The notes: generated by a model from the sequence alone, not told the origin. A DNA stretch of 64,000 bases from an uncultured Nitrospiraceae bacterium (GCA_963811165.1 CAWEQH010000010.1:1088001-1152000); one strand, 5' to 3'. Positions 21,771 through 38,527 are shown, counted from the first letter of the stretch. Translations and numbers: made by a program.

Positions 21771-21864
21771 ACCATAATCCTCCTAGATAGGCCATGTGAT
21801 GTTGACAACGTTACCTGAACCAGGTGTAAATAGTGTCTGTTTATATACTAAGATTTCATAATTC

Positions 21865-21936
21865 GTCATTCCACGACTTGATCGGGGAATCCAGTCTTCA
21901 GGGCCTCTGGATTGTCCGGTCAAGCCGGACAATGAC
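21865..21936. repeat. REP-like composite palindrome (GTCAT...GGAATCCAG / CTGGATT...AATGAC)
   Basis: Two inverted hairpin units; related copy at 38447-38527. Confidence 0.7.
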
Positions 21937-22037
21937 AAAATTGGACTTTATGCGTAGTCTCTAAATAATCAGGGACGATGCCATGATCGTCCCTGATTCA
22001 CTGTGTTATGTATGTCGCTACGGCGGCCCTTTTTCCC

Positions 22038-22495: not shown

Positions 22496-22619
22496 ATGAG
22501 AACGGCATCTGAGCGGCCACAGCCGCGCGTGTCGCATCACCGGGAAGGTGATGCGCGCCGGTGCCCCCGGAGGTCCGGCGCTTCGACGTACCGAGAATGA
22601 GCGATGATGCCGCTCCCAT
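22496..22619 (+). repeat. Structured non-coding motif, copy C (TGAGCGG...CCCGGAG...CGAGAATGAGCG)
   Basis: Same conserved blocks as the copies at 35052 and 35255, with different but complementary stems. Confidence 0.65.
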
Positions 22620-22645
22620 ACATATATTTTGGATGGTAAAATCGC

Positions 22646-23239
22646 TTACTTTTTCTCTACGATCTTGACCTTCATCTCAATCCGCTCGTTTGGGTTGTCC
22701 CTTGGGTCCCGGGGCTGGCTGACAATCTTGTCGACCACGTCCATTCCTGAAACAACCTCTCCGAAGACCGTATATTGCTTATCCAAAAAGGGCGCCTCCT
22801 TAACGCATATAAAAAACTGCGAGCCCGCGCTGTTGGGGTCAGCGGCCCGCGCCATCGAAAGTGTGCCGCGTTTATGGGGCTTATCGCTAAACTCGGCTTT
22901 TACCGTATAGCCTGGTCCGCCGGTGCCGTGGGTGGCCTTATTGGCGTTCCTGGAATTCGGGTCGCCGCCCTGGATCATGAACCCCGGTATTACCCGATGG
23001 AATATGGTGCCGTCGTAAAAACCTTTTTTTGCCAGCTCAATAAAATTATTGACATGGTTCGGCGCGACCTCGGGGAAAAACTTCAGTTCGATGTTCCCGA
23101 ATTTTGTCTCTATTACCGCTTTCGTATCCGCCATCTTCTTGATCTCCTCCTGCGTGAATTTTTTCGATTTCATCTCTGCCGAAGCCATAGAGGTCAAAAA
23201 TACAACCGCCATGACCGTACAAAAGACCCTCACACTCAT
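22646..23239 (-). CDS. Exported cyclophilin-type peptidyl-prolyl isomerase
   Basis: FHRVIPGFMIQGGDP, LSMAR, SAGSQFFI, YTVFG; signal peptide. Confidence 0.95.
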   Translation of the reverse strand: MSVRVFCTVMAVVFLTSMASAEMKSKKFTQEEIKKMADTKAVIETKFGNIELKFFPEVAPNHVNNFIELAKKGFYDGTIFHRVIPGFMIQGGDPNSRNANKATHGTGGPGYTVKAEFSDKPHKRGTLSMARAADPNSAGSQFFICVKEAPFLDKQYTVFGEVVSGMDVVDKIVSQPRDPRDNPNERIEMKVKIVEKK

Positions 23240-23250
23240 GATTATGCCTC

Positions 23251-24441
23251 CTATCTGGATTTTTCCATCAATCTGCCGAACTCCGTCAAAGATCTCGCGA
23301 CACAGTCTTCTATTGCAAGTCCCGAGAAAAAATTACCCGTAATGAAAACCTTTTTGCCCCCGATAAGCCTGTCGATATCACCGACGATTTTTTCGTGTCC
23401 AAGAAGCGGGGAAGGAAGGACAGCTGAATTATCGGAGGATGCCTCGAACTTATCCGTGCCTAAGACTTCGGCAATCCTCATCATTTTCCTCGCACGGTCC
23501 AGACCCGGCCCGAAATGGAACGTGAATCCCCTGTATGCCGGGTCCGAAACAATATCGCGCGACACCGCCGAGAAAAATACGTCGTTCACCGGTATAAGCC
23601 CGGCAAAAGGAGGCAGACCTACGGCCTCTTTTCTGACAACCACCCCAAGCGACTCCACCAGCGCGATTTTTATCTCCGCAAGCCGCGCCGCCGCCTCCGG
23701 AAGGACGTTCTTAAGGAGAGCCGAGGCCACCGAAGGCGGCACGGCAAGCCCCAGGTTATCGGCCAGGAATTCGCCGCAGCCGGCGACAGAGACCTTAAAA
23801 ACCGAATTATCGGTCTCGACCGAAGCCACCTCCGCACGGGTAAGCACCTCGATGTTCCTGGCCGATATCACGGCGTCGGCTATCGTTTGAAGGCCGCCTT
23901 GCACGGTAAACTTCTTTATGATGTCTTTTCGGCGTTTCCTTTTCTTAAAGAGCATCTCCGCCGGGAAATCATCTGCCGGCTGCGACGGCACCGCGCTTAG
24001 GGCAGGACCTATGACCCTCTCGAAATTCCTATGCCCGACTATCTTTGAGTAATAGGTCTTGACGGTCCGTCCGGATTTTGAGAGGGTAAAAATGTGCGGG
24101 GCAGAGCATGCAAATTCAAGAAAGTCGAGTTCCGAAGGGATAGATTTCACCTTGCCTTCTACGTACATCATGAAGGGCACCCTTTCCCGGGCCTGAAGCT
24201 TCTCCCTGAGTCCGCAGTCCTCGATAACTCCGATGAGGTTTCCGTATGAGTTATAACAGGTGTGGGCGCCCAATTCGAGCCAGAAGTCATCGACCTGCCT
24301 CATTGTCCTTAAGCATCCGCCCGCCTCAGGCGCCTTCTCAAGTAAAAGCGTCTTAAGGCCGGCCTTTGAGGCATAATGGGCGAGGCTTAACCCGCTTATC
24401 CCTCCGCCGACCACAATGATGTCATATCGTTTCAGATCCAT
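23251..24441 (-). CDS. Proto/coproporphyrinogen oxidase (HemY-like FAD oxidase)
   Basis: GGGISGL Rossmann motif, ELGAH, GLAIEDCV; overlaps hemH. Confidence 0.8.
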   Translation of the reverse strand: MDLKRYDIIVVGGGISGLSLAHYASKAGLKTLLLEKAPEAGGCLRTMRQVDDFWLELGAHTCYNSYGNLIGVIEDCGLREKLQARERVPFMMYVEGKVKSIPSELDFLEFACSAPHIFTLSKSGRTVKTYYSKIVGHRNFERVIGPALSAVPSQPADDFPAEMLFKKRKRRKDIIKKFTVQGGLQTIADAVISARNIEVLTRAEVASVETDNSVFKVSVAGCGEFLADNLGLAVPPSVASALLKNVLPEAAARLAEIKIALVESLGVVVRKEAVGLPPFAGLIPVNDVFFSAVSRDIVSDPAYRGFTFHFGPGLDRARKMMRIAEVLGTDKFEASSDNSAVLPSPLLGHEKIVGDIDRLIGGKKVFITGNFFSGLAIEDCVARSLTEFGRLMEKSR

Positions 24442-25433
24442 CCCGCCTCCTTCACGCCCTTCTTCACTATATCACCGAGTGCAGAAATAAAAAGCGGCGA
24501 GGTATTGAGAGATTCCGTCCGTTCGAGCCTTATGCCAAGTGACTGCGCCATTTTCTTATATAGTATATCGATTTCATAGAGGGTTTCGATATGGTCCGAG
24601 ACAAAACTTATCGGCACGACGAGGAGATTTTTCACGCCGCGCCCTGCAAGCTCCTTTATCATCTCGTCGGTCGACGGTTCAAGCCAGGCTACCGGTCCGC
24701 TCTTTGACTGATAGGAAAGGTCCCACGGTATCTTTACCCTCTTGGTGATCTCATCGATAGTGCCCCTGATATGTGTCACATAGGGATCGCCCTCCTCGAT
24801 GAACTTTTTGGGCAGGCTATGGGCGCTGAAAAGGAGATGGACATCGTCGCCTCCGCCGTCGGGCTGATCAAAGAGGGCGGTACCTTTTCTTATCTTCTCA
24901 ACGAGCGCCTCGATATAGAGAGGATGATCATGCCATGAGGGAATCGTAAACACCTCAAGCGGAAACCGGGAAACGACGTCCTTCATCTTGGAAAAAGACG
25001 AGCCCGTGGTCGCAATCGAATAATGGGGGTATAGACCCAGTGCGATGACCTTTCTGATCCCCTGATGAAAAATTTCGGGGACGGTCGCCTCGATAAGCGG
25101 GTGCCAGTACCTCATGCCTATGAAGACTTTAAAAAACCGTGAATCGTGAACTGTGAATCGTGAATCGTTTATTACTTCTTCAAGCGCCTTTGCCTGAGCC
25201 GTCGTTATATCGAAGATCGGAGATTTCCCGCCGATCAATCGATAGAATCCTTCGGTCTTTCTGTGCCGCAGAGTAGAGATGAGATATGCCAACGGTTTTT
25301 GCATGAAAGAAGGTCCGAGCCTGATGATCTCCCTGTCCGAAAAAAGGTTAAAAAGGAAAGACCTCACCGCCTCGAGGGAGTCAGGCCCCCCGAGGTTCAG
25401 AAGCAAAACCGCAATTGGATCATCGGCTTTCAT
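24432..25433 (-). CDS. hemH: Ferrochelatase
   Basis: LLNLGGP, MRYWHP, LYPHYS, FSAHSLP, WLEP, FVSDHIETLYEID. Confidence 0.97.
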   Translation of the reverse strand: MKADDPIAVLLLNLGGPDSLEAVRSFLFNLFSDREIIRLGPSFMQKPLAYLISTLRHRKTEGFYRLIGGKSPIFDITTAQAKALEEVINDSRFTVHDSRFFKVFIGMRYWHPLIEATVPEIFHQGIRKVIALGLYPHYSIATTGSSFSKMKDVVSRFPLEVFTIPSWHDHPLYIEALVEKIRKGTALFDQPDGGGDDVHLLFSAHSLPKKFIEEGDPYVTHIRGTIDEITKRVKIPWDLSYQSKSGPVAWLEPSTDEMIKELAGRGVKNLLVVPISFVSDHIETLYEIDILYKKMAQSLGIRLERTESLNTSPLFISALGDIVKKGVKEAGWI

Positions 25434-25500
25434 TTTTAAGGTAGTTCCCCTGCCTCATGTAGTCTATAAAAATTGATGGACCAGATAAGATCATGCACTA

Positions 25501-25692
25501 TTAGCCTGTTTTACTTGTCTTGCTTGTTTTTTGCTTTCCTGGAAATTTCTTAAGCACACGTCCTCCTTCGTATACAACCAATGGAGTATGCGTCTCCTCG
25601 GCAATCTTTTTCGCCCTCGTAGCCGCGCGCCTCAGCGCGATCTCCGCCTTTGCAAGATCGATATCCCGAATTTGCATTTTGACTTTGCTCAT
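25501..25692 (-). CDS. Small basic protein, likely partner of the adjacent ATPase
   Basis: 63 aa; ATGA overlap with the ATPase stop. Confidence 0.65.
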   Translation of the reverse strand: MSKVKMQIRDIDLAKAEIALRRAATRAKKIAEETHTPLVVYEGGRVLKKFPGKQKTSKTSKTG

Positions 25693-26213
25693 TCCTTTTC
25701 TCCTTCGTCAAGAAGTTTCGGTTTCTCTCCTGAATTGTCGAAAAGAACCCAGGCATCTACCATTTTTTTGTAAAGGTGCTGAAAATTGAGCCAGCCTTTT
25801 TCATATCTGCGTCTGATAGTCTGCTCCGGGACGTTGTGGCCGCCCTGCCTAACACGATTCTTTACCCGTTCAATTGCGGTCAGAACATCCGGGAGATAAA
25901 GGAAAATCAATTTTATTTTATAACCCATCCGCTGCCATTCGGGGATCATATGGGCGTAGGTCCTGCCGCTCAAAGTGGTTTCAAAAGCAAAACTTTCGCC
26001 GCTCGAAGCATGCCTTTTGATCTCCTCGATCATAAGTCTGCCTGCATGAAAGGACGCTATCTCGGGGATAAATGGAGAAATGCCTGCTGCGATAAGATCC
26101 GCATTCACAAAGACCGGGCAGCTTGCCTCTTTTGGTAAATACTCAAGAGCAAAAGTGGTCTTGCCCGCACCGTTTGGTCCCGCGATAACTATTATTTTCT
26201 TGTTCTTATTCAT
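25689..26213 (-). CDS. Zeta-toxin-like/AAA_33 P-loop ATPase
   Basis: IAGPNGAGKTT, VNAD, FAFETTLS, RVRQGGHNVP, DNS. Confidence 0.88.
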   Translation of the reverse strand: MNKNKKIIVIAGPNGAGKTTFALEYLPKEASCPVFVNADLIAAGISPFIPEIASFHAGRLMIEEIKRHASSGESFAFETTLSGRTYAHMIPEWQRMGYKIKLIFLYLPDVLTAIERVKNRVRQGGHNVPEQTIRRRYEKGWLNFQHLYKKMVDAWVLFDNSGEKPKLLDEGEKE

Positions 26214-26249
26214 CCTTCCTCTAACCATATCTTGCCTCATTAAGGTTCA

Positions 26250-26312
26250 TTAGCGCGCTTGAGCCCGACCTAAGTTCAGGAGCAAAACCGCAACCGTCTC
26301 ATTGTCTTTCAT
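26250..26312 (-). pseudogene. Orphaned hemH 5' fragment (MKDNETVAVLLLNLG)
   Basis: About 85-bp direct repeat of the hemH start and upstream region (about 25389-25474 vs 26269-26353). Confidence 0.8.
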
Positions 26313-26427
26313 ATTCAAGGTGGTTCGCCCGCCGTCTGTAGTCTATAAAAATTAACGGCCCATCGTCAAAAATTCAGGCACCTGTTTTCTCGGCAAATTG
26401 CCCATCCGGAAGTATAATAAGACAGTT

Positions 26428-26595
26428 ATGAAAAAAATTGTCATGACGGGTATGGTGATAGGGTCCTTCATAGGAAGCTTTATTCCCTTGCTTTGGGGCG
26501 ACAGCGCCTTATCCATGTCTTCTTTATTCTTTGGCGCCGTTGGGGGGTTTATCGGCATTTGGGCCGGTTATAAGATAGGGCAAAATTGGGGTTAG
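26428..26595 (+). CDS. Small Gly-rich membrane protein
   Basis: Two hydrophobic GxxxG helices; first gene of a + strand cluster. Confidence 0.55.
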   Translation: MKKIVMTGMVIGSFIGSFIPLLWGDSALSMSSLFFGAVGGFIGIWAGYKIGQNWG

Positions 26596-26606
26596 GAGGA
26601 ATATAT

Positions 26607-27071
26607 ATGCAAAAAATCACACCACATTTATGGTTTGACAAAGAAGCTAAGGATGCAGCCAAATTCTATACCTCCGTCTTCCCAAAATCGAAGATCAAAG
26701 ACACTACGACACTCCATAACACCCCTTCCGGTACTGTGGATATCGTTACCATCGAGCTTTTAGGGCAGGAATTCATGCTGATCTCCGCTGGCCCTCTTTT
26801 TAAGTTTAATGAATCAATCTCGTTCATCATCAACTGCGATACCCAGGAAGAAATAGACTATTACTGGGAGAAACTCTCCGCAGTTCCAGAAGCGGAACAA
26901 TGCGGCTGGCTCAAGGACAAGTACGGCCTTTCATGGCAGATTGTCCCAACATTAATGAGCAAGATGATGAGGGACAAAGACAAGAAGAAACTCGCACGGG
27001 TGACCGAAGCGTTTCTCGAGATGAAGAAGTTTGATATTGCAACCCTCAAGCGGGCATACAAGGGGGTATAG
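26607..27071 (+). CDS. VOC/PhnB-like protein
   Basis: QKITPHLWF, CGWLKDKYGLSWQIVP; GGAGG SD. Confidence 0.9.
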   Translation: MQKITPHLWFDKEAKDAAKFYTSVFPKSKIKDTTTLHNTPSGTVDIVTIELLGQEFMLISAGPLFKFNESISFIINCDTQEEIDYYWEKLSAVPEAEQCGWLKDKYGLSWQIVPTLMSKMMRDKDKKKLARVTEAFLEMKKFDIATLKRAYKGV

Positions 27072-27072
27072 T

Positions 27073-27741
27073 ATGAGAAAACTTGTTGTTCTGTCTTTCA
27101 TAACCCTTGATGGCGTAATGCAGGCTCCCGGCGGGCCTGAAGAAGACCCCACTAGCGGGTTCACGCAGGGCGGGTGGGTTGCCGGGTACTTTGATGACTT
27201 CCTTGGCAAAGTGATGGTCAAGCAAATGAGCAAACCCTTTGACTTATTGCTTGGCAGGAAGACGTATGAGATATTCGCCGCGCACTGGCCGTACGTGAAG
27301 ACCAATGAGGATCCCATCGCAGCCGGAATTAATAATGCGAAAAAATATGTAGCTTCAAAAACCCTTACAAAGCTTGACTGGTCCAATTCCGAACTCATTA
27401 AGGGAGATGTCGCGAAGGAAGTTAAAATACTGAAAGAGCAAGACGGGCCTGAAATACAAGTTCATGGCAGCGGCAATCTCATTCAAACACTACTGAAACA
27501 TGATCTGGTTGATGAGCTTTGGCTGAAAATATTTCCCATCACTCTCGGCAGGGGCAAGCGCTTATTTGCGGAAGGCACAATCCCGGTTGGATTTAAATTG
27601 TTTGAAAGCGAGAGTTCACCAAGTGGGGTCATCATTGCCTCGTATGTACGCGCGGGAGAGGTCAAGACAGGATCGTTCGCCTTTGAGCCCCCCACTGAGG
27701 CCGAACTTGCCCGTCGCAAACGACTTAAAGAAGGGAAATAA
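27073..27741 (+). CDS. Dihydrofolate reductase family (RibD C-terminal) protein
   Basis: TLDGVMQAPGG, LLGRKTY, GSGNL, LGRGKRLF. Confidence 0.9.
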   Translation: MRKLVVLSFITLDGVMQAPGGPEEDPTSGFTQGGWVAGYFDDFLGKVMVKQMSKPFDLLLGRKTYEIFAAHWPYVKTNEDPIAAGINNAKKYVASKTLTKLDWSNSELIKGDVAKEVKILKEQDGPEIQVHGSGNLIQTLLKHDLVDELWLKIFPITLGRGKRLFAEGTIPVGFKLFESESSPSGVIIASYVRAGEVKTGSFAFEPPTEAELARRKRLKEGK

Positions 27742-27793
27742 GATAGGGAAAAATTGGGTTCAGGCGGACTTTAAAAATTCCATCGGAGGTCCA

Positions 27794-28006
27794 ATGGCTC
27801 AGGAACTCATTATTTACGGCAAGGCCGGCTGACCTTACACCGAAAAGGCCAGGTCGGCCCACACCACTGCCAAGTATTTTGATGTGATGAAAGACCCTGT
27901 AAAACTTCAGGAGATGCTAAGGCATTCAAAGGGCGTCAGGAAGGTCCCTGTTGTCGTTGAAGGTGAAAAGGTTTCAATAGGATACGGGGGTTCCTGAGGG
28001 GTCTGA
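27794..28006 (+). CDS. Glutaredoxin-like selenoprotein with two in-frame UGA codons (UXX-star type)
   Basis: GGAGG SD; MAQELIIYGKAG-U-PYT...RKVPVVVEGEKVSIGYGGS-U-GV*; UGA at 27830 and 27995, each followed by an AGGT-loop hairpin. Confidence 0.85.
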
Positions 28007-28304
28007 TCCCGATAGGTTATCGGGAATCCATCTAGTCGTGGATGAAGACTCGGGTTGGTTTCTCACAGAAAGCCTCGAAAGTTTCCATTTCCCGAAACAG
28101 CGCAGTATTTCGCGTAACATTACCGACTCAGCTGCATAGGTGGTGTTCGGCTTAACAGTCGGAGAAGCACCTTTTCTGCTTATAAGGAAGGCTGCCCCCT
28201 TCTTTCAACCCTTGCGTTGCTTGACATCTCTTGTGACGCTGATAAACTGACGATAGAGAAGCTAAATGTGTCGGTGAGAAAGAAAAAGGCTGAGGGGGCA
28301 TGAG

Positions 28305-28526
28305 ATGGACTGGTTTTGGTTTCTGATTATCGGTGCTGTGGCGGGCTGGCCTGCGGGAAAGCTTACCCGCGGGCGCGGGTTCGGCCTTGTGTGGGACTTC
28401 GTGGTGGGAATCCTTGGGGCGCTCGTCGGCGGTTTTATTTTTCGACTTATCGGCGTCGTTTCTTTCGGCGAGAGGTTTTGCCTGAGCCGAGCGTGCCCGA
28501 TAGGCGTTTTCGCCCGCGATCTATAA
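28305..28526 (+). pseudogene. Truncated GlsB/YeaQ/YmgE (transglycosylase-associated) membrane protein
   Basis: IIGAVAGW..GK..RGRGFG....VVGILGALVGG matches the family; the third TM is replaced by unrelated sequence after about 28470. Confidence 0.65.
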
Positions 28527-28572
28527 TAGTCTTTATGCTACCTGCGAGCCGTAAGCCAAGAGGCAACGCATC

Positions 28573-30399
28573 ATGCACCTGAACGTCGCTCAATACATTG
28601 TCTTCGCCACGCTCGCCGCCGCCTTGGTCCTGTTCGTCACCGGATGGCTGCGCTATGACTTGGTCGCCTTGTGCGCTCTGCTGACGCTCGCGCTGACAGG
28701 AGTAGTCAAGCCCGAGGCGATATTCGCAGGCTTTGCGGATGGTGCCGTGATCAGCGTTGCCGCCGTGCTCGTGATGAGCCGCGGCTTGCGCAATTCAGGC
28801 GTGGTCGAAGTACTGGCGGAGCGATTGGCGCTGATCGGCGGCCGACTGGGCGAATCGCCGCGGATCGCGCTCCTAGGGACGGTCGTGAGCTTCCTTTCCG
28901 CCTTTATCAACGATGTGGGCACGCTCGCGCTGTTCATGCCGGTATCAATCAAGCTTTCGCGCAGGCAGAATGCTTCGGCGGGCCCAATCCTGATGCCGCT
29001 CGCGTACGCGACGCTGCTGGGCGGCATGACGACGCTGATCGGCTCCTCCGCCAACCTCGTGGTTTCAGCCTATCGCGCCCGCGTTGCGCATGGCGGTTTT
29101 GGGATGTTCTCATACACGCCGGTCGGCGTCGGCATTGCGATTGTCGGTCTGGTCTACGTTTCGGCGGTCGGATGGCGCCTGCTGCCGAAGCGGAGCCGCA
29201 ATAGCGAACATGGCGAACTATTCAAAATCGACGAATACATGACCGAAGTGCGGGTGCCCGACAAATCCAAAGCCGTTGGCCAGACGATCGGCGACCTCGA
29301 AGAAGCCTCCGACGGCGCCGTAAGCGTGCTTTCGCTGCTGCGCGACGGATGGCGACAGGTCGCGCCCTCGGGTTTCCAGATGGTCAGGCCCAACGATCTG
29401 CTCATCGTGCGGGGCGACCCCGAAAGCCTGCAAGACGCTATATCGAAAGTGGGCCTCGAGCTCGAAGCCCAGAAACAACAGGAAAAAAAAGAGCAGCAAG
29501 AAAATCCACAAAACGGCGAAAAAAAGGGGCCAGACGATGCGGCGCAAATGGTTGAAGCAGTCGTCGTCCCCGGTGCCCGAATCGTCGGCCGCAGCGCGTC
29601 TAGATTGCGCCTGCGCGACCGCTATGCGGTCAATATCCTTGCCGTCGCGCGTCGGGGCGGCGCAATCCGCGTGCGGCTACGCGATGTCCGCTTCGAGGCA
29701 GGCGACGTGCTGCTCGCACAGGGTCAGCCGGAAGCACTGCAGCAGGCCTTTTCAGATCTCGGGCTGCTGCCGCTAGCTGAGCGCGAGATTCGCCTGGGCC
29801 ATCCCCGCCGCGTCCTGCTGGCGATAGCCGTGTTCACCGCTTCGCTGGCGGCCGCCACGCTCAATCTGTTCAGCGTGGCGGTCTGCCTGACGAGTGGGGC
29901 CGTCGCAATGGTACTGCTTGGGCTGGTGTCGCCCGAGGAGATTTACACCAGTCTTGAGTGGCCGGTGCTGGTGCTTATCGCGGCGATGATCTCCGTGGCC
30001 GGTGCCCTGCAAACCAGCGGCGTCAGCGAACTGATCGCACTGCCCTTGCTGGCGCTCGCGCATCATCTGCCAGCAGTGGGAGCGGTCTCGATGATTTACG
30101 TGGTGACGATGCTGCTGGCAAACCTCATCCATCACGTAGCGGCCGCGGTCCTGATGGCGCCGGTCGCGCAAGGCATTGCCGCGGGTCTCGGCATGTCGCT
30201 CGACCCGTTCCTGATGGCGGTCGCATACGGTAGTGTCTCAGCCTTCGTGACTCCGATCGGGCATCCTTCTAACACGCTGGTGATGGGGCCCGGTGGCTAC
30301 AAGTTCAGTGACTACATGCGGATGGGCCTGCCTCTTTCCCTCCTCACCACGCTCACCGCTTCGCTTCTGATTTCGCTTTTTTGGCCATTATACCGCTGA
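28573..30399 (+). CDS. SLC13/CitMHS-family permease with two TrkA-C domains
   Basis: LLGGMTTLIGSSAN, TPIGHPSNTLVMGPGGYKFSDY, two RCK-C repeats. Confidence 0.9.
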   Translation: MHLNVAQYIVFATLAAALVLFVTGWLRYDLVALCALLTLALTGVVKPEAIFAGFADGAVISVAAVLVMSRGLRNSGVVEVLAERLALIGGRLGESPRIALLGTVVSFLSAFINDVGTLALFMPVSIKLSRRQNASAGPILMPLAYATLLGGMTTLIGSSANLVVSAYRARVAHGGFGMFSYTPVGVGIAIVGLVYVSAVGWRLLPKRSRNSEHGELFKIDEYMTEVRVPDKSKAVGQTIGDLEEASDGAVSVLSLLRDGWRQVAPSGFQMVRPNDLLIVRGDPESLQDAISKVGLELEAQKQQEKKEQQENPQNGEKKGPDDAAQMVEAVVVPGARIVGRSASRLRLRDRYAVNILAVARRGGAIRVRLRDVRFEAGDVLLAQGQPEALQQAFSDLGLLPLAEREIRLGHPRRVLLAIAVFTASLAAATLNLFSVAVCLTSGAVAMVLLGLVSPEEIYTSLEWPVLVLIAAMISVAGALQTSGVSELIALPLLALAHHLPAVGAVSMIYVVTMLLANLIHHVAAAVLMAPVAQGIAAGLGMSLDPFLMAVAYGSVSAFVTPIGHPSNTLVMGPGGYKFSDYMRMGLPLSLLTTLTASLLISLFWPLYR

Positions 30400-30524
30400 A
30401 CAACCGAGGGGCATCCTTGACGGTCCGTGCGCAGGGAAGTCAGGGACCTCGAAGTAGCCGGCCATCGTGGCGCAGATCCTCGCGCGTCTCGGCCGTGTCC
30501 CCGCGCCCGCTGCCCGGCACCCGG

Positions 30525-30706
30525 TACCGAAGATTCCTCAAGCGAAGAAACTGCTCGGCCCACACCGTAAAAAACTATCTGAATATCCCGGTCATTTAAA
30601 TGCGTGGCTGCAGATCCCCTTAGAGCAGGCGACCTCCGGGGAAACTAATGCATATATGGAGCACTTGTCGATGGGTAGAAAAAAGCCGAAGACGAATGCT
30701 TGTTGA
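30525..30706 (+). pseudogene. Tyrosine recombinase N-terminal remnant
   Basis: YRRFLKRRNCSAHTVKNYLN, then a frameshift, then WLQIPLEQAT...AYMEHL...KPKT; resembles an integrase core-binding domain. Confidence 0.55.
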
Positions 30707-30899
30707 AGAAAACGTGACCGCGCTGTCGCGTCCCCGCGAACTCAATAAGCTAAGCCTGTAATGGCCCGTCGCATACTTGCATGTTTGGGGGCAAACTCTC
30801 GAAGAGTTTCGACCCGGCATACCTATCAAGTATCAGTCAATCTGCAGGTGACTGAATTTCTGAATCTGAGGGTTGTCAGAAAATAGGGAACTCCGACTT

Positions 30900-31411
30900 C
30901 TATTTCTCCCTCCCGAACCCCTTTATCACCTTCATCTTCTCGGCCGGCGACACCATCAGTTGCCGAATGGCATCAAAGACGACCTTGAACTGAGAGTCAT
31001 ATTTCTTTTCCATGTCGTCGAGCTTCTTTGCAAGGTCTTTGTGCGCCGCCAGCATTTCGCGCAGCTTCACAAAGGCCCTCATTATCGCAATGTTCACCTG
31101 AACGGGCGTTTGCCGCGCAGCACACTCGAAAGCATTGCACCACCTTGTTCAGTAAAGGCATATGGATTGGCCCGGCGAATACCGCCCCAACTTGAAGTCA
31201 CAATTTGTGACTTCAAGTTCATAAGCTCCTGATTTGACAGCATAAACATAAAGTCTTCCGGAAATCGTTCCATGTTCCTTTTTACAGCCTGGATCAGGAC
31301 CTTGGGCTCAACATCGTAAAGTTCCGCGAGGTCCGTACTCAACATGACTTTATGTCGCCGGATCAGATAAATTTTCTTCTCGATTATTTCAACAGGAATG
31401 AACTCTTTCAT
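30900..31411 (-). pseudogene. ORF6N-domain DNA-binding protein, split by a 1-nt deletion near 31105
   Basis: [33 protein letters not shown] | [13 protein letters not shown]; adding one base rejoins the two ORFs. Confidence 0.8.
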
Positions 31412-31566
31412 TAACCCTCCTTCCCCTGCGATCAAGTCCCCATGCGACATGTATCTCTTCCGAAATGATAATATTCCGGGCTTACCAAAGACAAGAACTA
31501 TTTGTTTTGATTTGAGGTATGCGATAAGGTGATGGTTAGCTCCGCTTACCGGTCGCGGCTAAGAGG

Positions 31567-33057
31567 TTACCCTTTCAGTATCTCAGGCTCGGTGTGGGGT
31601 ATGAACATCGCGCCCTGAAGCATATTCATCAGGTCCTGGTCCTCGTTCATCTCGCGATAGGTGATCCTGGAGGCGATGTCCTGGACCTCGGCCAAAAGGT
31701 CCCTGTTTAGTAATACCATTTCCGCTCCGCCTAAAGAAGAATTCCCCACAGGGATGAACCTCTCTCTCGGAATGTCCGGAAGCATGCCGATGGTGATCGC
31801 CTTTTCAGGGTCGATCCCGCATCCGAGGGCGCCGGCAATATATACCTTTTTTATGTCTTTAAACGTCAGCCCGACAGACCTCACAAAAACGTAAAGGAAA
31901 GAAAACATGGCGGCCTTCGAAAGAAGGAAATTTTTTATCTCGTTTTCGGTCAGATAAAGTCCGCCTCTTTCGGACCGGTGGAGAAGGTATGCCTTCACCC
32001 CGTCCTTTTCGGCTGTCTCCTGTCCCGTAAACTTTCCGGTCTGGTCGATAATCCCGGCCGAATACATCTCAGAGACAAGGGCTATCAGACCCGAACCGCA
32101 GATGCCCCTGGGCTCCGTGTCTCCGATGACCCTCATCCCGATCTTTCCGCTTATGCGGTCGATCGTCACGTCGGAGATCGTCCCTGTCCCTGCCTTTTTC
32201 CCGATACTGGCCACCCCGCCTTCAAGCGCAGGCCCGGCAGCGCCCGCGCCCACCATGATCCAGTCCCTAAAGCCGAGCGTTATCTCGACATTTGTACCGA
32301 CATCGATGAAAAGCACCGGTTCGTCCTCGCGGTAGACCCCGGCAAAGAGGATGCCGCTTACAATGTCCCCGCCCACATAACTCCCTGCATTGGGGAAGAC
32401 ATACACCGCCGCATTCCTGTTCACCGGAAGCCCCGCCTCTTCCGCCGATACGAAGACGGCCCTGTTTACTGCAGGGACATATGGACTGAGAGGAATATTC
32501 CTTACGTCCAGGCCGAGAAAGAAGTGTGACATGATCGTATTGCCCGCTACCGTCACCGCGAGAACATCCTCAGTCCTGACGCCGTGTCGTTTACACACAC
32601 CTTCAATGGCCAGGGTTACCCCTTTCTCAAGGGCCTTTTTAAGGACCGGAAATTCCCCCATCATCGACCGCTGCACCCTGGTGAGCACATCGTTTCCGAA
32701 ACTCATCTGCGGGTTTTCCGTTTCCCCTGCACCAATCCGCTCCCCCAAAGAAAGATCGAACAAGGAGCATTCTATATTGGTCGAGCCGATATCAAGCGCA
32801 ATGCCGTATATACGGTCTTTCCCTATGTCGAGCAGTCTATGTCCCTCTCCCGTACGACCGACGGCGACCTTCGTCTGAAAACCACTATTACGGAGCTCCT
32901 CAGGCAGCCTCCTCATTATATGAAGCGGGATATCTACATTGTCCAGCCCATGCCTTTTCAGCCCTTCCGAAAGCCTGTCCGCATCAGCCGTCTTATCCGA
33001 AGACGAAGGCCCTTCAACGGCGAGATCAAGAAGAAAAACAAGCGGCTTATGATTCAT
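31567..33057 (-). CDS. ASKHA-domain protein (DUF4445/RACo-like)
   Basis: DIGST, ENPQ..FG.DV..R, DVGTN, AAGPALEG, GICGSG, GNSSL; no N-terminal 2Fe-2S domain. Confidence 0.85.
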   Translation of the reverse strand: MNHKPLVFLLDLAVEGPSSSDKTADADRLSEGLKRHGLDNVDIPLHIMRRLPEELRNSGFQTKVAVGRTGEGHRLLDIGKDRIYGIALDIGSTNIECSLFDLSLGERIGAGETENPQMSFGNDVLTRVQRSMMGEFPVLKKALEKGVTLAIEGVCKRHGVRTEDVLAVTVAGNTIMSHFFLGLDVRNIPLSPYVPAVNRAVFVSAEEAGLPVNRNAAVYVFPNAGSYVGGDIVSGILFAGVYREDEPVLFIDVGTNVEITLGFRDWIMVGAGAAGPALEGGVASIGKKAGTGTISDVTIDRISGKIGMRVIGDTEPRGICGSGLIALVSEMYSAGIIDQTGKFTGQETAEKDGVKAYLLHRSERGGLYLTENEIKNFLLSKAAMFSFLYVFVRSVGLTFKDIKKVYIAGALGCGIDPEKAITIGMLPDIPRERFIPVGNSSLGGAEMVLLNRDLLAEVQDIASRITYREMNEDQDLMNMLQGAMFIPHTEPEILKG

Positions 33058-34966
33058 ACATGATCTTCCCCATATCGGATACGTCATACCCCCCGAGCGC
33101 CTCGACCGAGGTCCTGAACTCACTGTTCTCTCTGATTATTTGCAAGAGGGCAGACAGGGAAGGCATCCCGATAAAATCAGCAGGGATCGCCAGGTCATAT
33201 CGCTCCTTGGCAAGCGGGATGAAATCGAGGCCGAGCGCCTCTGCAGAAGCGAGTATCCCCATGCCCGTGTCGGCGATACCGGTAAGGACTGCAGAAGCGA
33301 CACCCATATGGGTGTACTCCTCGCGTTCGTATCCTTTGACGTCCTTAGAAGCGATACCCAACTCCTTAAGGTATTTATCGGTGAGGAGTCTCGTTCCTGC
33401 GCCGGACTGCCTGTTGATGAAAACAACATCCTCCCTGGTCAGGTCCGCGAACCCTCGTATGTCCCTGGGGTTCCCCTTGGGCACCATAAGCCCCTGCTGG
33501 CGGTAAACCAGGTTCACAAGGATTATCTTCTTCTTCGTAAGAATTCTCCGGATATAGGGCACGTTATATTGGCCTGTTTCTTCATCCAGGAGGTGGGTGC
33601 CTGCCATATGGGCCTCTCCCTTTTTAAGCGCGATCAGCCCTCCCATAGATCCGACATGGGCCGAGGAGAGCGAATACGCGGGATGGGTTTTCTTAAGGAT
33701 GTTGGCAAGAATATCGAGCGCGTTGTCATGGCTTCCTATACAGACAACGGTATTTTCTATCTCCTTTTTATCCCTGAGCATCTCGACGTCCACTTCGGTC
33801 CCCGTGCCGAACCCTTCAGACATGGCGGGTATCCTCACGACACCGTCGGCACGGACCAGCGACATGAGCACGCCTGCGCCCCTGCTTACCGGAGTGGCGA
33901 TAAGGTTTTCGCCCACCCTTCCGAGTTTCACCCGAAGAAATTCCTCCTGCCCCAAAGACGAGGCCACCTGCCGTGAAAGCCGCGCTTTCATGAACTCCGG
34001 GTCGGGCGCTTCGAGCCCTTGCCATTTGTACAGAAGGCCCTTCGCAAAGAGTGTGAAGGTTATATATGCAGAGACCGGGTAACCCGGGATGCCGAGCACA
34101 GGCCTTCCCTTGGCCCATCCGAGGATAACCGGTTTACCGGGTTTGATGTTTATGCCGTGAAGCAGCACCTCGCCAAGCCCGGCGATGACCTGTGCAGTAT
34201 AGTCTTCTGAGCCGGCAGAGGAGCCCGCATTAATCACGACCAAGTCCCCCATCCGGCACCCCTCCATGACGGCGCTCTTTATCTTGTCGATGTCGTCGGG
34301 CACGGGGTCAAACCTCACGGGTGTCCCTCCCCATTCAGTGACCATCGAGGACAATATCCGCGAATTATATTCGATGATGTCCCCCTTTTTGAGGTCCGTC
34401 CCAGGCTCCACAATCTCCGATCCCGTGGGGATAATCACCACCTTCGGTCTTCTTCGAACGTTTATCTCCAGATGTCCGCCTGAAATGACCGCACCGATAT
34501 CGACCGGCCTCATCCTGTGGTTTTCAGGCACGATCAGTTCGGTAGAAACGATGTCTTCCCCTATGACCCTCACGTGCTGCCAAGGGGCAGCGGGCGCGAG
34601 TATTTCGATATGACCTTCCGAAACATTCACCTCCTCTATCATGATCACCGCGTTAAAGCCCTCGGGAAGGGGATCGCCAGTGTCTGCATATACGGCCTCC
34701 TGCCCGAGTTTCAGCCTCTTGGGGACGGACTCCGAGGCGCCGAAGGTCTCTGAGAATCTCACCGCATATCCGTCCATGGCCGACGAATGGTAGAAAGGCG
34801 AGGAGAGCCTCGCAAAAACAGCCCCGGAGGTTATTCTCCCCAGCGAATCTCCGACCGATACCGGCTCACCCTCAAGCGGCCTGACCCCCTCGGAAGCTAT
34901 CTTCTCCGCCCAGAGTTTCAGGGCATCGGCCAAAGGGGTGTTTTCGAGGTATATTCCTTTCTTCAT
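33047..34966 (-). CDS. moeA: Molybdopterin biosynthesis protein MoeA fused to a C-terminal PBP (LysR substrate-binding-like) domain
   Basis: SAMDGYAV, IKPGKP, PGYPVS, then IGSHD, GSMGGL, NRQSGAGTR. Confidence 0.9.
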   Translation of the reverse strand: MKKGIYLENTPLADALKLWAEKIASEGVRPLEGEPVSVGDSLGRITSGAVFARLSSPFYHSSAMDGYAVRFSETFGASESVPKRLKLGQEAVYADTGDPLPEGFNAVIMIEEVNVSEGHIEILAPAAPWQHVRVIGEDIVSTELIVPENHRMRPVDIGAVISGGHLEINVRRRPKVVIIPTGSEIVEPGTDLKKGDIIEYNSRILSSMVTEWGGTPVRFDPVPDDIDKIKSAVMEGCRMGDLVVINAGSSAGSEDYTAQVIAGLGEVLLHGINIKPGKPVILGWAKGRPVLGIPGYPVSAYITFTLFAKGLLYKWQGLEAPDPEFMKARLSRQVASSLGQEEFLRVKLGRVGENLIATPVSRGAGVLMSLVRADGVVRIPAMSEGFGTGTEVDVEMLRDKKEIENTVVCIGSHDNALDILANILKKTHPAYSLSSAHVGSMGGLIALKKGEAHMAGTHLLDEETGQYNVPYIRRILTKKKIILVNLVYRQQGLMVPKGNPRDIRGFADLTREDVVFINRQSGAGTRLLTDKYLKELGIASKDVKGYEREEYTHMGVASAVLTGIADTGMGILASAEALGLDFIPLAKERYDLAIPADFIGMPSLSALLQIIRENSEFRTSVEALGGYDVSDMGKIMYES

Positions 34967-35051
34967 CAATTTCTCCTTCTCACAAGTAAAAACATCTTTT
35001 ATTATCAATGATTATCCCCTTTAAATCAACGGCTCAGCCAGGAATTTCGCA

Positions 35052-35186
35052 ATAAGAGAGGACTATCTTTTCGCTCATTCTCGTCCCGAAAGCATTCGGG
35101 ACTCCGAGGCTTTTGCCTCTTTATTTAAGAAGAGCATACTTAAGAATATCGGCAAAAGAAACCGCTCAAAGAAAGTCCTCTCTTAT
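35052..35186 (-). repeat. Structured non-coding motif, copy A
   Basis: 13-bp perfect closing stem ATAAGAGAGGACT/AGTCCTCTCTTAT enclosing the conserved blocks. Confidence 0.7.
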
Positions 35187-35254
35187 GCATTTATCGGTTG
35201 CAAAATAAATGAACTAAGCTTCCCGAGTCACAAAGGCCCCTCTAAGTATGAAGA

Positions 35255-35368
35255 AACGAATGGGACCGCATTTGAGCGGCTTCAATTTCTCGTATGTGCC
35301 TGCCGCAGGCAGGCGAGAAATTGCCTCGGAGCGTAGCGAGAATGAGCGAAAAAGCGGTCCCATTCGTT
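35255..35368 (+). repeat. Structured non-coding motif, copy B
   Basis: 15-bp perfect closing stem AACGAATGGGACCGC/GCGGTCCCATTCGTT enclosing the conserved blocks. Confidence 0.7.
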
Positions 35369-35447
35369 ATCCACGATTATCTGTCCTGACTGCATGACGT
35401 GTAGTGTTTAGGATTTTTTTAGCCCGGACCGGGCCGCATCAGCACCT

Positions 35448-36020: not shown

Positions 36021-36320
36021 TTAGCCGTACCACCAATCAAGGGCGTCGGTGAGTTTCTCTCTTCTGCTTTCGATCTCCTCTTGTGTGCTCCTGAAATCTA
36101 CAGGACAGGCCTTTGTGAGCGACTCGAGCTTTTTCTCGATATAGTCCACTAGGTCGAACAGTTCAAAATATTCCTGCCGGCGCGCTTCTTCTGCGGCAGT
36201 TGTCGTCTCAACACTACAGACAAGGCCAAAGGCCTTTTTCTTCATCTCGCTCAGTTCCCTGTATACGCTTTCGCAGTAATTACGGACGTCTATATCTTCT
36301 TTTATCGCTGCCGTTGCCAT
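36021..36320 (-). CDS. Hypothetical helical protein downstream of a c-di-GMP riboswitch
   Basis: GAGGAGG SD before ATG 36320; 99 aa with NYC...CP motifs. Confidence 0.75.
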   Translation of the reverse strand: MATAAIKEDIDVRNYCESVYRELSEMKKKAFGLVCSVETTTAAEEARRQEYFELFDLVDYIEKKLESLTKACPVDFRSTQEEIESRREKLTDALDWWYG

Positions 36321-36360
36321 GGGTCGCCTCCTCTCCTTCGGCCGCTCCGGCACAGTAACC

Positions 36361-36476
36361 AAAAAGGCCGAGCAGACCGAAGATACTTCATATTCCTTCG
36401 GCAGCTCGGCCGTCTCCCTATGAGAAGATCCGCCGCTTTCCGTCCCCCCTTTCGAAGGGTTTAGCTTTTCGGGAAA
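36361..36476 (-). promoter_or_regulatory. c-di-GMP-I (GEMM-I) riboswitch with overlapping terminator
   Basis: GAAAAGCTAAACCCTTCGAAAGGGGGGACGGAAAGCGGCGGATCT...AGACGGCCGAGCTGCCG, then CTTCGG..GCTCGGCC-TTTTT. Confidence 0.88.
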
Positions 36477-38446: not shown

Positions 38447-38527
38447 GTCATGCCGGACTTGATCCGGTATCCAGCGACTTTAAAAGGCCAATACATGGAT
38501 TCCGGCTCAACACACCGCCGGAATGAC
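38447..38527. repeat. REP-like composite palindrome
   Basis: GTCATGCCGGACTTGATCCGGTATCCAG...TGGATTCCGG...CCGGAATGAC; homologous to 21865-21936. Confidence 0.7.

Follow-up and report, generated by a model that had tools for sequence, protein, structure and literature searches.

An uncatalogued structured repeat dispersed in Nitrospirota genomes and often carried in miniature transposons

A stretch of 64,000 nucleotides from an uncultured Nitrospiraceae bacterium (GCA_963811165.1, CAWEQH010000010.1:1088001-1152000; the window, meaning this whole stretch) holds three intergenic segments that share junction sequences while the helices around them vary, and the question is what such an element is and why it is kept. 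An initial annotation described the three copies and offered a ribozyme, a structured non-coding RNA or a structured single-stranded DNA (ssDNA) mobile repeat as possibilities. The three-copy description is real, although it missed the copy number in the genome, a tandem G·A zipper and the shells of miniature transposable elements with inverted repeats (MITEs) that enclose many copies. The element is a real, uncatalogued structured repeat, non-coding, dispersed, 115-135 nt long and present in about 40 copies per genome. On balance, we favor the explanation that it is a mobile repeat which spread as the cargo of IS1380-type MITEs, and which likely forms a folded ssDNA three-way junction that would be read by some protein.

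A profile search of the genome carrying the window (G000; 3.66 Mb, 95% complete) gave 38 matches at E<1e-8 and 46 at E<0.05. The exact core pattern is present in 16 of 41 genomes, this one included, and in three of seven congeners; at the level of the class, it is found in 67 of 201 genomes with at most 87 copies, the reversed-pattern controls giving 0. Three of the 64 parts of a named-genome collection held 127 loci, mostly from Nitrospirae or Thermodesulfovibrionia. Multicopy full elements are also found in metagenome-assembled genomes (MAGs) of Planctomycetota (G215; 109-111 copies, with 0 in 25 relatives), Gemmatimonadetes (19), Parcubacteria (5) and Latescibacterota (4), and a Desulfobacterales MAG has 20 full elements, the element being present in 8 of 151 genomes of its class. 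Six phyla thus carry it, Nitrospirota and five others. Many core-pattern matches outside Nitrospirota are due to chance, and 81 of 137 loci passed a stem filter. The viral contigs searched gave 0 core matches, and plasmids and a distant blastn search gave no match. Copies are extragenic, multicopy and near stop codons, and some form doublets. The family is larger than counted, since the exact patterns miss core variants whose 3' junction has one additional base (L316, L336, L338).

The anatomy of the family was derived from 312 unique full copies, with covariation counted on junction-anchored parses and the 5' junction placed from stem pairing alone. So placed, GAGCGG-N-TT was recovered at 83-96% per position, and the closing stem (P1) is paired at about 90% or more up to position 18, reaching background by position 22. 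In 139 copies picked by the core only, P1 is 91% paired versus 37-50% when slid by 1-3 positions. P1 holds 242 G·T against 62 A·C, and this excess identifies the motif strand as the folding strand. The conserved junctions and covarying helices described from three copies hold across the 312. In the predicted fold, a closing stem of 18-21 bp leads through a tandem G·A zipper to a three-way junction with two swappable arms. The left GAGCGG and the right GAGCGA can make two G·A tandems around a G-C and a C-G pair, and pairing and covariation together predict a zipper of the form (G·A)2-(G-C)(C-G)-(G·A)(G·G/A). Past the zipper, the model places a TT/AA helix, arm P2, one or two unpaired C and a CTCG/CGAG helix, which would bear a 3-nt GAG or CAG bulge and lead to arm P4. 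The first zipper pair covaries (241 G-C, 25 A-T and 13 G·T), its A-T version occurring in G000, G123, G174, G193 and G215, and the context is Y-GA-R, with a pyrimidine at position -1 in 285/312 and a purine at +1 in 291/312. K-turn and C/D-box readings of the zipper were ruled out by eye against consensus sequences. P2 spans 19-86 nt and P4 5-29 nt; both fall into subtypes and both take up other repeats. Other repeats insert into the loops of the element: the tips of P2 and P4 can harbor C-tract/G-tract hairpin repeats or short GC palindromes (G000 contig C10 near 211600 and 952350, C8 near 571950; loci L018, L020, L090, L591, L592 and L603).

The three copies were found at the positions and on the strands originally reported. 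Their parts, and the features next to them, are as follows.

22496..22619, + strand: copy 1, arm subtype B; decaying; antisense, 26 nt past the cyclophilin stop codon
Copy 1, 5' half: P1 5' arm 22496-22510, 5' junction 22511-22519, P2 22520-22564
Copy 1, 3' half: middle junction 22565-22572, P4 22573-22591, 3' junction 22592-22604, P1 3' arm 22605-22619
35052..35186, - strand: copy 2, arm subtype C; counterpart in the congener G002
Copy 2, first parts: P1 3' arm 35052-35070, 3' junction 35071-35083, P4 35084-35101, middle junction 35102-35109
Copy 2, remaining parts: P2 35110-35158, 5' junction 35159-35167, P1 5' arm 35168-35186
35187..35254: doublet spacer, with no recognisable terminal repeat left
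35255..35368, + strand: copy 3, arm subtype A; presumed G002 ortholog known
Copy 3, first parts: P1 5' arm 35255-35273, 5' junction 35274-35282, P2 35283-35323 (C-GCA-G tip)
Copy 3, remaining parts: middle junction 35324-35331, P4 35332-35336 (GCGTAGC mini-hairpin), 3' junction 35337-35349, P1 3' arm 35350-35368
35030..35430: inverted doublet region, in opposite orientation with respect to the flanks in G002 and close relatives; breakpoints outside both closing stems
22646..23239, - strand: cyclophilin gene (PF00160), host flanking gene outside the element
33047..35008, - strand: MoeA-PBP fusion gene, host flanking gene outside the element

The closing stems pair as first described (15 bp perfect in copy 3, 13 bp perfect in copy 2 and 12/14 in copy 1, where the two non-pairs are A·C), and those of copies 2 and 3 continue to 18/19 pairs, reaching the junction. 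The inner stems, the inserts and the 13-mer CGAGAATGAGCGA are all present, the latter three times exactly and four times at ≤1 mismatch in the window, versus 0.20 expected. Two statements in the initial annotation had to be corrected. The copy 1 inner stem GCATCACC/GGTGATGC is an arm tip, not a homolog of the basal stems given for copies 2 and 3, and the closing stems, said to differ completely, have a mean identity of 48% within the genome. On their annotated strands, copies 1, 2 and 3 have folding z-scores of -3.0, -7.4 and -6.1; the opposite strand of copy 1 folds better (z -4.7). The copy 1 site is empty in 5/5 congeneric genomes. The copy is present with changes in run X1, from a close relative, and departs from the family consensus at several positions where X1 has the usual base.

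As to whether the element acts as DNA or as RNA, we consider an ssDNA fold to be quite probable. C-GNA-G triloops, counted per copy and not per lineage as all loops here, number 115 on the motif strand versus 4 on the other strand, and minimal five-base P4 inserts are CGNAG in 37 of 44 cases, with N being all four bases. According to PMC13037366, only GNA loops give the GCNNNGC DNA mini-hairpin (Tm 70-76 C), GCGNAGC forms it whichever base is at N, and r(GCGAAAGC), the RNA counterpart tested there, has much lower stability, with melting at 39 C. The other C-G-closed loops number 25 versus 9 for C-GNYA-G and 11 versus 9 for C-GNRA-G, and cUNCGg is found once on the motif strand versus 14 times on the other. 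With replichores called from skew (~84% accurate in calibration), the motif strand is the leading-strand template in 29/38 and 38/56 copies, and in 16/19 copies in convergent or divergent gaps. In co-directional gaps the motif is antisense in 21/29 cases in G000 (21:8) and 21/25 in G129 (21:4), and elsewhere in 57/78 shell-less (57:21) and 27/39 shell-bearing (27:12) cases, these sets partly overlapping. Both the antisense and the replichore bias locate the folding strand on the side that is single-stranded least often, as PMC5371416 reports for attC sites in sedentary integrons.

The antisense bias could also be that of a functional structured RNA. The motif strand would then specify a small RNA or a new ribozyme, transcribed from an antisense promoter or one of its own, and sense copies in operons would be purged as the RNA cuts or stalls the message. 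A G·T bias on one strand and compensatory stems are what an RNA would show, and under RNA parameters the motif strand is the more stable one in 114 of 119 copies. Tandem G·A is common in RNA as well, which adds to the case. An RNA covers the antisense bias, but neither the loops, which are GNA triloops and GNYA instead of cUNCGg or C-GNRA-G, nor the replication-strand bias at the 16/19 copies where transcription does not decide. Rfam gave no match at gathering for the copies, none at E≤10 for copies 2 and 3, and only four weak matches of at most 15.5 bits near copy 1; the hammerhead consensus core CUGANGA...GAAA...UH was found in 0 of 624 strand scans. No promoter-like site was found pointing into copies 2 or 3, and sense copies are tolerated. 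We therefore regard a functional RNA as unlikely. Of the possibilities first offered, the structured ssDNA mobile repeat gained support from polymorphism, MITE shells with target duplications and DNA-type loops, while the ribozyme or non-coding RNA did not, with no Rfam or hammerhead match, a mostly antisense placement and no enrichment of C-G-closed RNA tetraloops. The statement that no known family matches stands for Rfam, the hammerhead, the tag of repetitive extragenic palindromic (REP) sequences and the Ssn motif.

For many copies, the carrier is a MITE of 170-215 bp that has IS1380-type ends and a 4-bp target duplication of the YTAR type. Among 135 copies with enough flank, sequence resembling an IS1380-type terminal repeat is found upstream of 30, downstream of 25 and on both sides of 18, versus 8 upstream and 4 downstream in the wrong orientation, which served as the control. 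Terminal-repeat scans yielded 49 short pairs, 23 of them with identical 4-bp flanks, mostly YTAR; 12 contain the core, 3 a core variant and the remainder other cargo, so that 37/49, the 3 core variants among them, lack the 13-mer. The same ends bound seven elements of 1.57-1.76 kb (identical 4-bp duplications in 5/7), and the IS1380 transposase cut-off (models NF033539 and PF13701) was passed by 9/9 proteins tested, one of them from the same order (G184). None of these full-length elements shows a core within 330 nt of the matched end. Young, near-identical MITE copies are found in G201, G176 and G168.

Gain and loss between species show mobility, and two further, unrelated shells carry the core in other phyla. 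Of 68 copies in the congeners G001, G002 and G006, 23 lack a syntenic anchor; for the others the G000 site is empty in 33 cases, filled in 8 and partial in 4, so that 33/45 anchorable copies are missing from G000 at the same site. Single-copy comparisons of filled and empty sites gave a median size difference of 189 bp, with 16/25 at 166-202 bp (25 of the 33 empty sites were measured; excluded were doublets, sites carrying other insertions and one with a remnant), which means that the gained unit has the size of the shell and not that of the core. The G000 copies are old, with eroded shells. The three copies in the window have no recognisable IS1380-type ends, all six flank scores being <0; their descent from MITEs is suggested by the congeners and by the presumed G002 ortholog of copy 3, which retains an IS1380-type right end (score 17.6). 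The G219 cores lie in units of 195 bp whose ends are different (154 matches) and which have duplications of 8 bp; there the ends are intact and the core is often defective, and 63-bp core-less forms also occur. We take the GTAA ends and 8-bp duplications of this shell to be reminiscent of IS66; two PF01609 genes were examined as its transposase and both lack the G219 ends. In G215, inward GGGGAC-type ends are found at 10/39 copies and at 0 in the wrong orientation. These ends are of the type that flanks a 226-amino-acid RAYT-like gene in that genome (79.7 bits, cut-off 80), an arrangement corresponding to TIR/TIRYT in PMC3733652. Since the core is found in three unrelated shells, it is not part of any one transposon.

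Apart from the core, many other cargos of ~130-190 nt, unrelated to each other, are housed in IS1380-type shells with the same ends, and CGNAG loops are found in many of them (L195, L204, L209, L227, L229, L241, L242, L283, L295, L296, L299 and L749-L751); an Rfam scan of the cargo in 20 shell loci gave no match. At L214, IS1380-type ends lie 1740 bp apart with a TTAA duplication and enclose an IS110-family transposase.

The presence of one core in three unrelated shells, and of copies without a detectable shell, could also mean that the element itself is mobile. It would then be a REP-like but tag-less ssDNA unit with its own HUH or GIY-YIG enzyme, which would measure the ~20-bp stem and insert into palindromes, hence the several shells. 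The fixed stem length, the 63-bp core-less shells of G219 and the 111 copies in G215 with none in 25 relatives fit such a unit. So does the uncoupling of P1 from the interior (0.50 vs 0.46 in G215; 0.53 vs 0.46 in G000), but this follows from the faster change of P1 and is predicted by faster drift as well, and slippage between short direct repeats could have given rise to the 63-bp forms by deletion. What is gained in this genus has the size of the shell, and inspection by eye showed no stem arm at most empty sites; for the same reasons, a closing stem derived from the target was rejected for this genus. No cognate gene was found in the loci searched, and we judge autonomous mobility to be improbable, slightly more so than a functional RNA.

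The comparison of old copies indicates what is kept. In eight orthologous pairs (a ninth, which did not parse, is left out, two copies were used twice, and the orthology of an A-type pair presumes an inversion), the interior is identical at 638/683 positions (93%) and P1 at 227/288, with the flanking genes at 75-83%. In gapped alignments of these pairs, which include a chance floor, the 45 nt outside the element are identical at 421/650. In P1, 15 changes are double compensatory and 10 go via G·T, while pairing is broken from one side in 13 and from both sides in 4; 19 two-sided changes were observed versus 6.5 expected. Erosion in old copies thus affects the shell and spares the interior, with compensatory change in the closing stem. 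A neutral passenger, namely an old hairpin captured by MITEs whose stems are maintained by template switching or hairpin repair and whose interiors are maintained by gene conversion, would fit the absence from sister species, the frequent partial deletion, the free amplification of defective cores, the arm modules that differ between copies at the same site and the many other cargos of the IS1380 shells, but we consider it the least probable of the alternatives, given a junction that stays the same in genomes of six phyla although their stems are entirely different, the covarying pair inside a non-canonical zipper, the G·T pairs that are kept and not perfected, and a locus with 94/97 interior identity in two comparisons where the genes are at 75-83%.

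For cargo that is mobile and read as ssDNA, the following mechanism is proposed. An IS1380 transposase supplied in trans would have moved the shells. The fold would form when the motif strand becomes transiently single-stranded, and copies whose folding strand is the exposed one (the coding strand or the lagging-strand template) would be disfavored. A nuclease or ssDNA-binding protein acting in trans may read the invariant junction, just as RAYT reads REP and SsnA reads NTS; we infer such a reader because transposition needs the shell ends only and cannot explain the kept core. More speculatively, and rather less likely than not in our view, the element could be a portable ssDNA junction module, conserved in at least six phyla and assembled from DNA mini-hairpins, a tandem G·A zipper and a ruler stem of ~20 bp. 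It would then be the substrate of a new structure-specific enzyme, be it a nuclease, a primase or a restart factor, and would help its carrier, any small inverted-repeat element moving by DDE or HUH chemistry, to spread or persist.

Several observations weigh against the explanation that we favor. With respect to a reader, the clustering of 591 open reading frames (ORFs) beside 395 cores revealed no recurring nuclease or transposase, and Pfam scans of 26 and 93 neighbors found unrelated host genes. The core is at 0 of 45 Y1 loci, 0 of 30 DUF559 loci and 0 of 10 GIY-YIG loci of G215-G219 (in each case the best-scoring loci of the search), and three close GIY-YIG genes have their own flanking repeats. 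With respect to carriage, G000, a 95% complete genome, gave no match to the IS1380 transposase (PF13701) and none to Y1 proteins, and the 15 core-positive relatives gave only one PF13701 match, with different ends. Clear shell ends are found on only 1/32 G000 copies, and the terminal-repeat trace in that genome is p = 0.003 upstream and p = 0.55, not significant, downstream. Constraint is not uniform: shell-borne bursts amplify defective cores, copy 1 is decaying and is the weakest of the three, partial deletion of copies is common, the first zipper pair is broken in some copies (18 A·C, 9 purine·A), and the conservation of the interior could stem from gene conversion among copies. With respect to ssDNA, GNRA loops with other closing pairs number 37 on the motif strand versus 18, co-directional gaps in G215 have no antisense bias (4/11), co-directional sites in G129 follow gene direction and not the replichore (8/10 on lagging-strand genes), and an RNA would account just as well for the G·T bias and the tandem G·A, which do not discriminate. 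Finally, the copies are interrelated, so P-values overstate significance.

The only lead to a partner comes from small GIY-YIG proteins. In 30 further GIY-YIG loci the core is present in four, on one side only: one of the genes is accompanied by SRM-like repeats of its own, another two are from a clade located between tRNA-end duplications, and the fourth is 1.4 kb off. This clade of 83-amino-acid proteins (L768:1400-1830, L779:1400-1780 and L766) has a core copy 100-300 nt downstream in 2/3 members, and the two members inspected lie between duplicated tRNA-end-like sequences; its proximity to the core probably reflects a shared hot spot. A shared neighboring gene was also considered and rejected, the recurring clusters scanned being generic families (histidine kinases, ABC transporters).

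Copies 2 and 3 form a head-to-head doublet, whose interior is confirmed by an X5 contig that spans 35053-35352 with 2 differences and 1 gap. The G002 doublet has the same two subtypes in swapped order, and the outer stem arms move with their copies; it aligns at 77.5% over 329 nt in the opposite orientation versus 63% in the same one. Position 35052 is linked to 35427 or 35421, on the other strand, in contigs from X1, X2 and X3. The flanks of X1 and X2 are 96-97% alike, and the X1 copy looks mosaic. We read this as inversion of the whole doublet, possibly by recombination between eroded outer ends; the difference in orientation may instead reflect independent gains. An assembly artefact is unlikely, as the outer arms travel with their copies and the X5 contig confirms the interior. 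Other head-to-head doublets are found at C9:36494-36808 of G000 and at L158, L160, L161 and L162, the left copy usually being of arm subtype C; the right copy of the C9 doublet has lost different parts in G002 and G006.

The window contains a second repeat family, made of head-to-head doublets of CGTC-type hairpins (21864-21937 and about 38447-38527). The unit at 21864 fits a published Ssn-related motif, which has 42 pattern matches in the genome (no shuffle control), and the first doublet sits in a stretch replaced in X1 and X3 (joint 21773-22015). CGTC-type hairpins also flank small GIY-YIG genes in G000 C7 (L444) and in G001 (L166). Elsewhere in the window, a c-di-GMP-I riboswitch (36397-36475, - strand, 51.6 bits) lies upstream of a 113-amino-acid ORF (36021-36362) with no Pfam or NCBIfam match. 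A 606-bp stretch (25728-26335) with a Zeta-toxin/AAA-like ORF (25689-26240) is skipped in X1, and the stretch 31017-31565, which carries an ORF6N-domain gene (31094-31450, - strand), is 990 other bases in X1.

The literature covered, which took in few subscription journals and left supplementary motif lists outside its scope, yielded no description of the element, and its place is best seen by comparison with known systems. Like bacterial MITEs (PMC10969869), the units that carry it are non-coding, <500 bp, intergenic and strongly folding, with terminal inverted repeats shared with an autonomous IS and target duplications that fade with age. In that paper MITE folds are treated as stem-loops of transcripts, and 'IS1380' does not appear in its main text. 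Unlike in MITEs, it is the cargo that is conserved here and not the ends, and one cargo is found in three unrelated shells and outlives them. With REP/REPIN-RAYT and TIR/TIRYT (PMC3733652) it shares many copies, a patchy distribution across species, a location near stop codons, scarcity in divergent gaps and head-to-head doublets. However, REP is a 20-40-bp palindrome (PMC3733652), whereas the element is 115-135 nt long and branched, with free stem sequence. Membership in REP fails, as a GTAG or CGTC tag at the stem foot is found in only 2-11/312 copies per tag position and no copies flank a RAYT gene at 45 Y1 loci. NTS/SRM and the Ssn GIY-YIG nucleases (PMC11893778) serve only as a model of how it may work, with a small enzyme acting in trans that reads a repetitive ssDNA fold: the SRM search pattern matched 0/312 copies on the motif strand and 1 on the other, no NTS-ssn-NTS-like arrangement with the core was found at the GIY-YIG loci examined, and the Ssn-like genes in these genomes are flanked by another repeat.

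Like attC (PMC5371416), the element would fold on one strand of DNA, has free stem sequence and lies downstream of and antisense to genes; in most cases its folding strand is the leading-strand template, which is also so for sedentary integrons. In contrast to attC, there are no cassette arrays, the neighbors are unrelated housekeeping genes, the element is branched and its interior is conserved; RYYYAAC/GTTRRRY consensus ends are absent from the flank logos. At the level of building blocks, its loops and Y-GA-R zipper context correspond to DNA mini-hairpins (GCGNAGC/GCGNNAGC) and to blocks of tandem sheared G·A, which are present where ssDNA serves as a priming or promoter site (PMC13037366, PMC10085684); those are structural motifs, whereas the element is a repeat family. 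Nearly all natural functional ssDNA folds are simple hairpins, and PMC5737381 calls a more complex one rare. Structured repeats can evidently spread inside unrelated MITE shells and outlast them, and searches for RNA motifs should take into account that DNA can produce both covariation and a G·T bias. The element is MITE-like in its movement and, by analogy, would be REP- or NTS-like in its recognition. If this is true, a branched fold with an invariant junction across phyla extends the theme of REP/RAYT and NTS/Ssn, and points to a new ssDNA-recognising protein.

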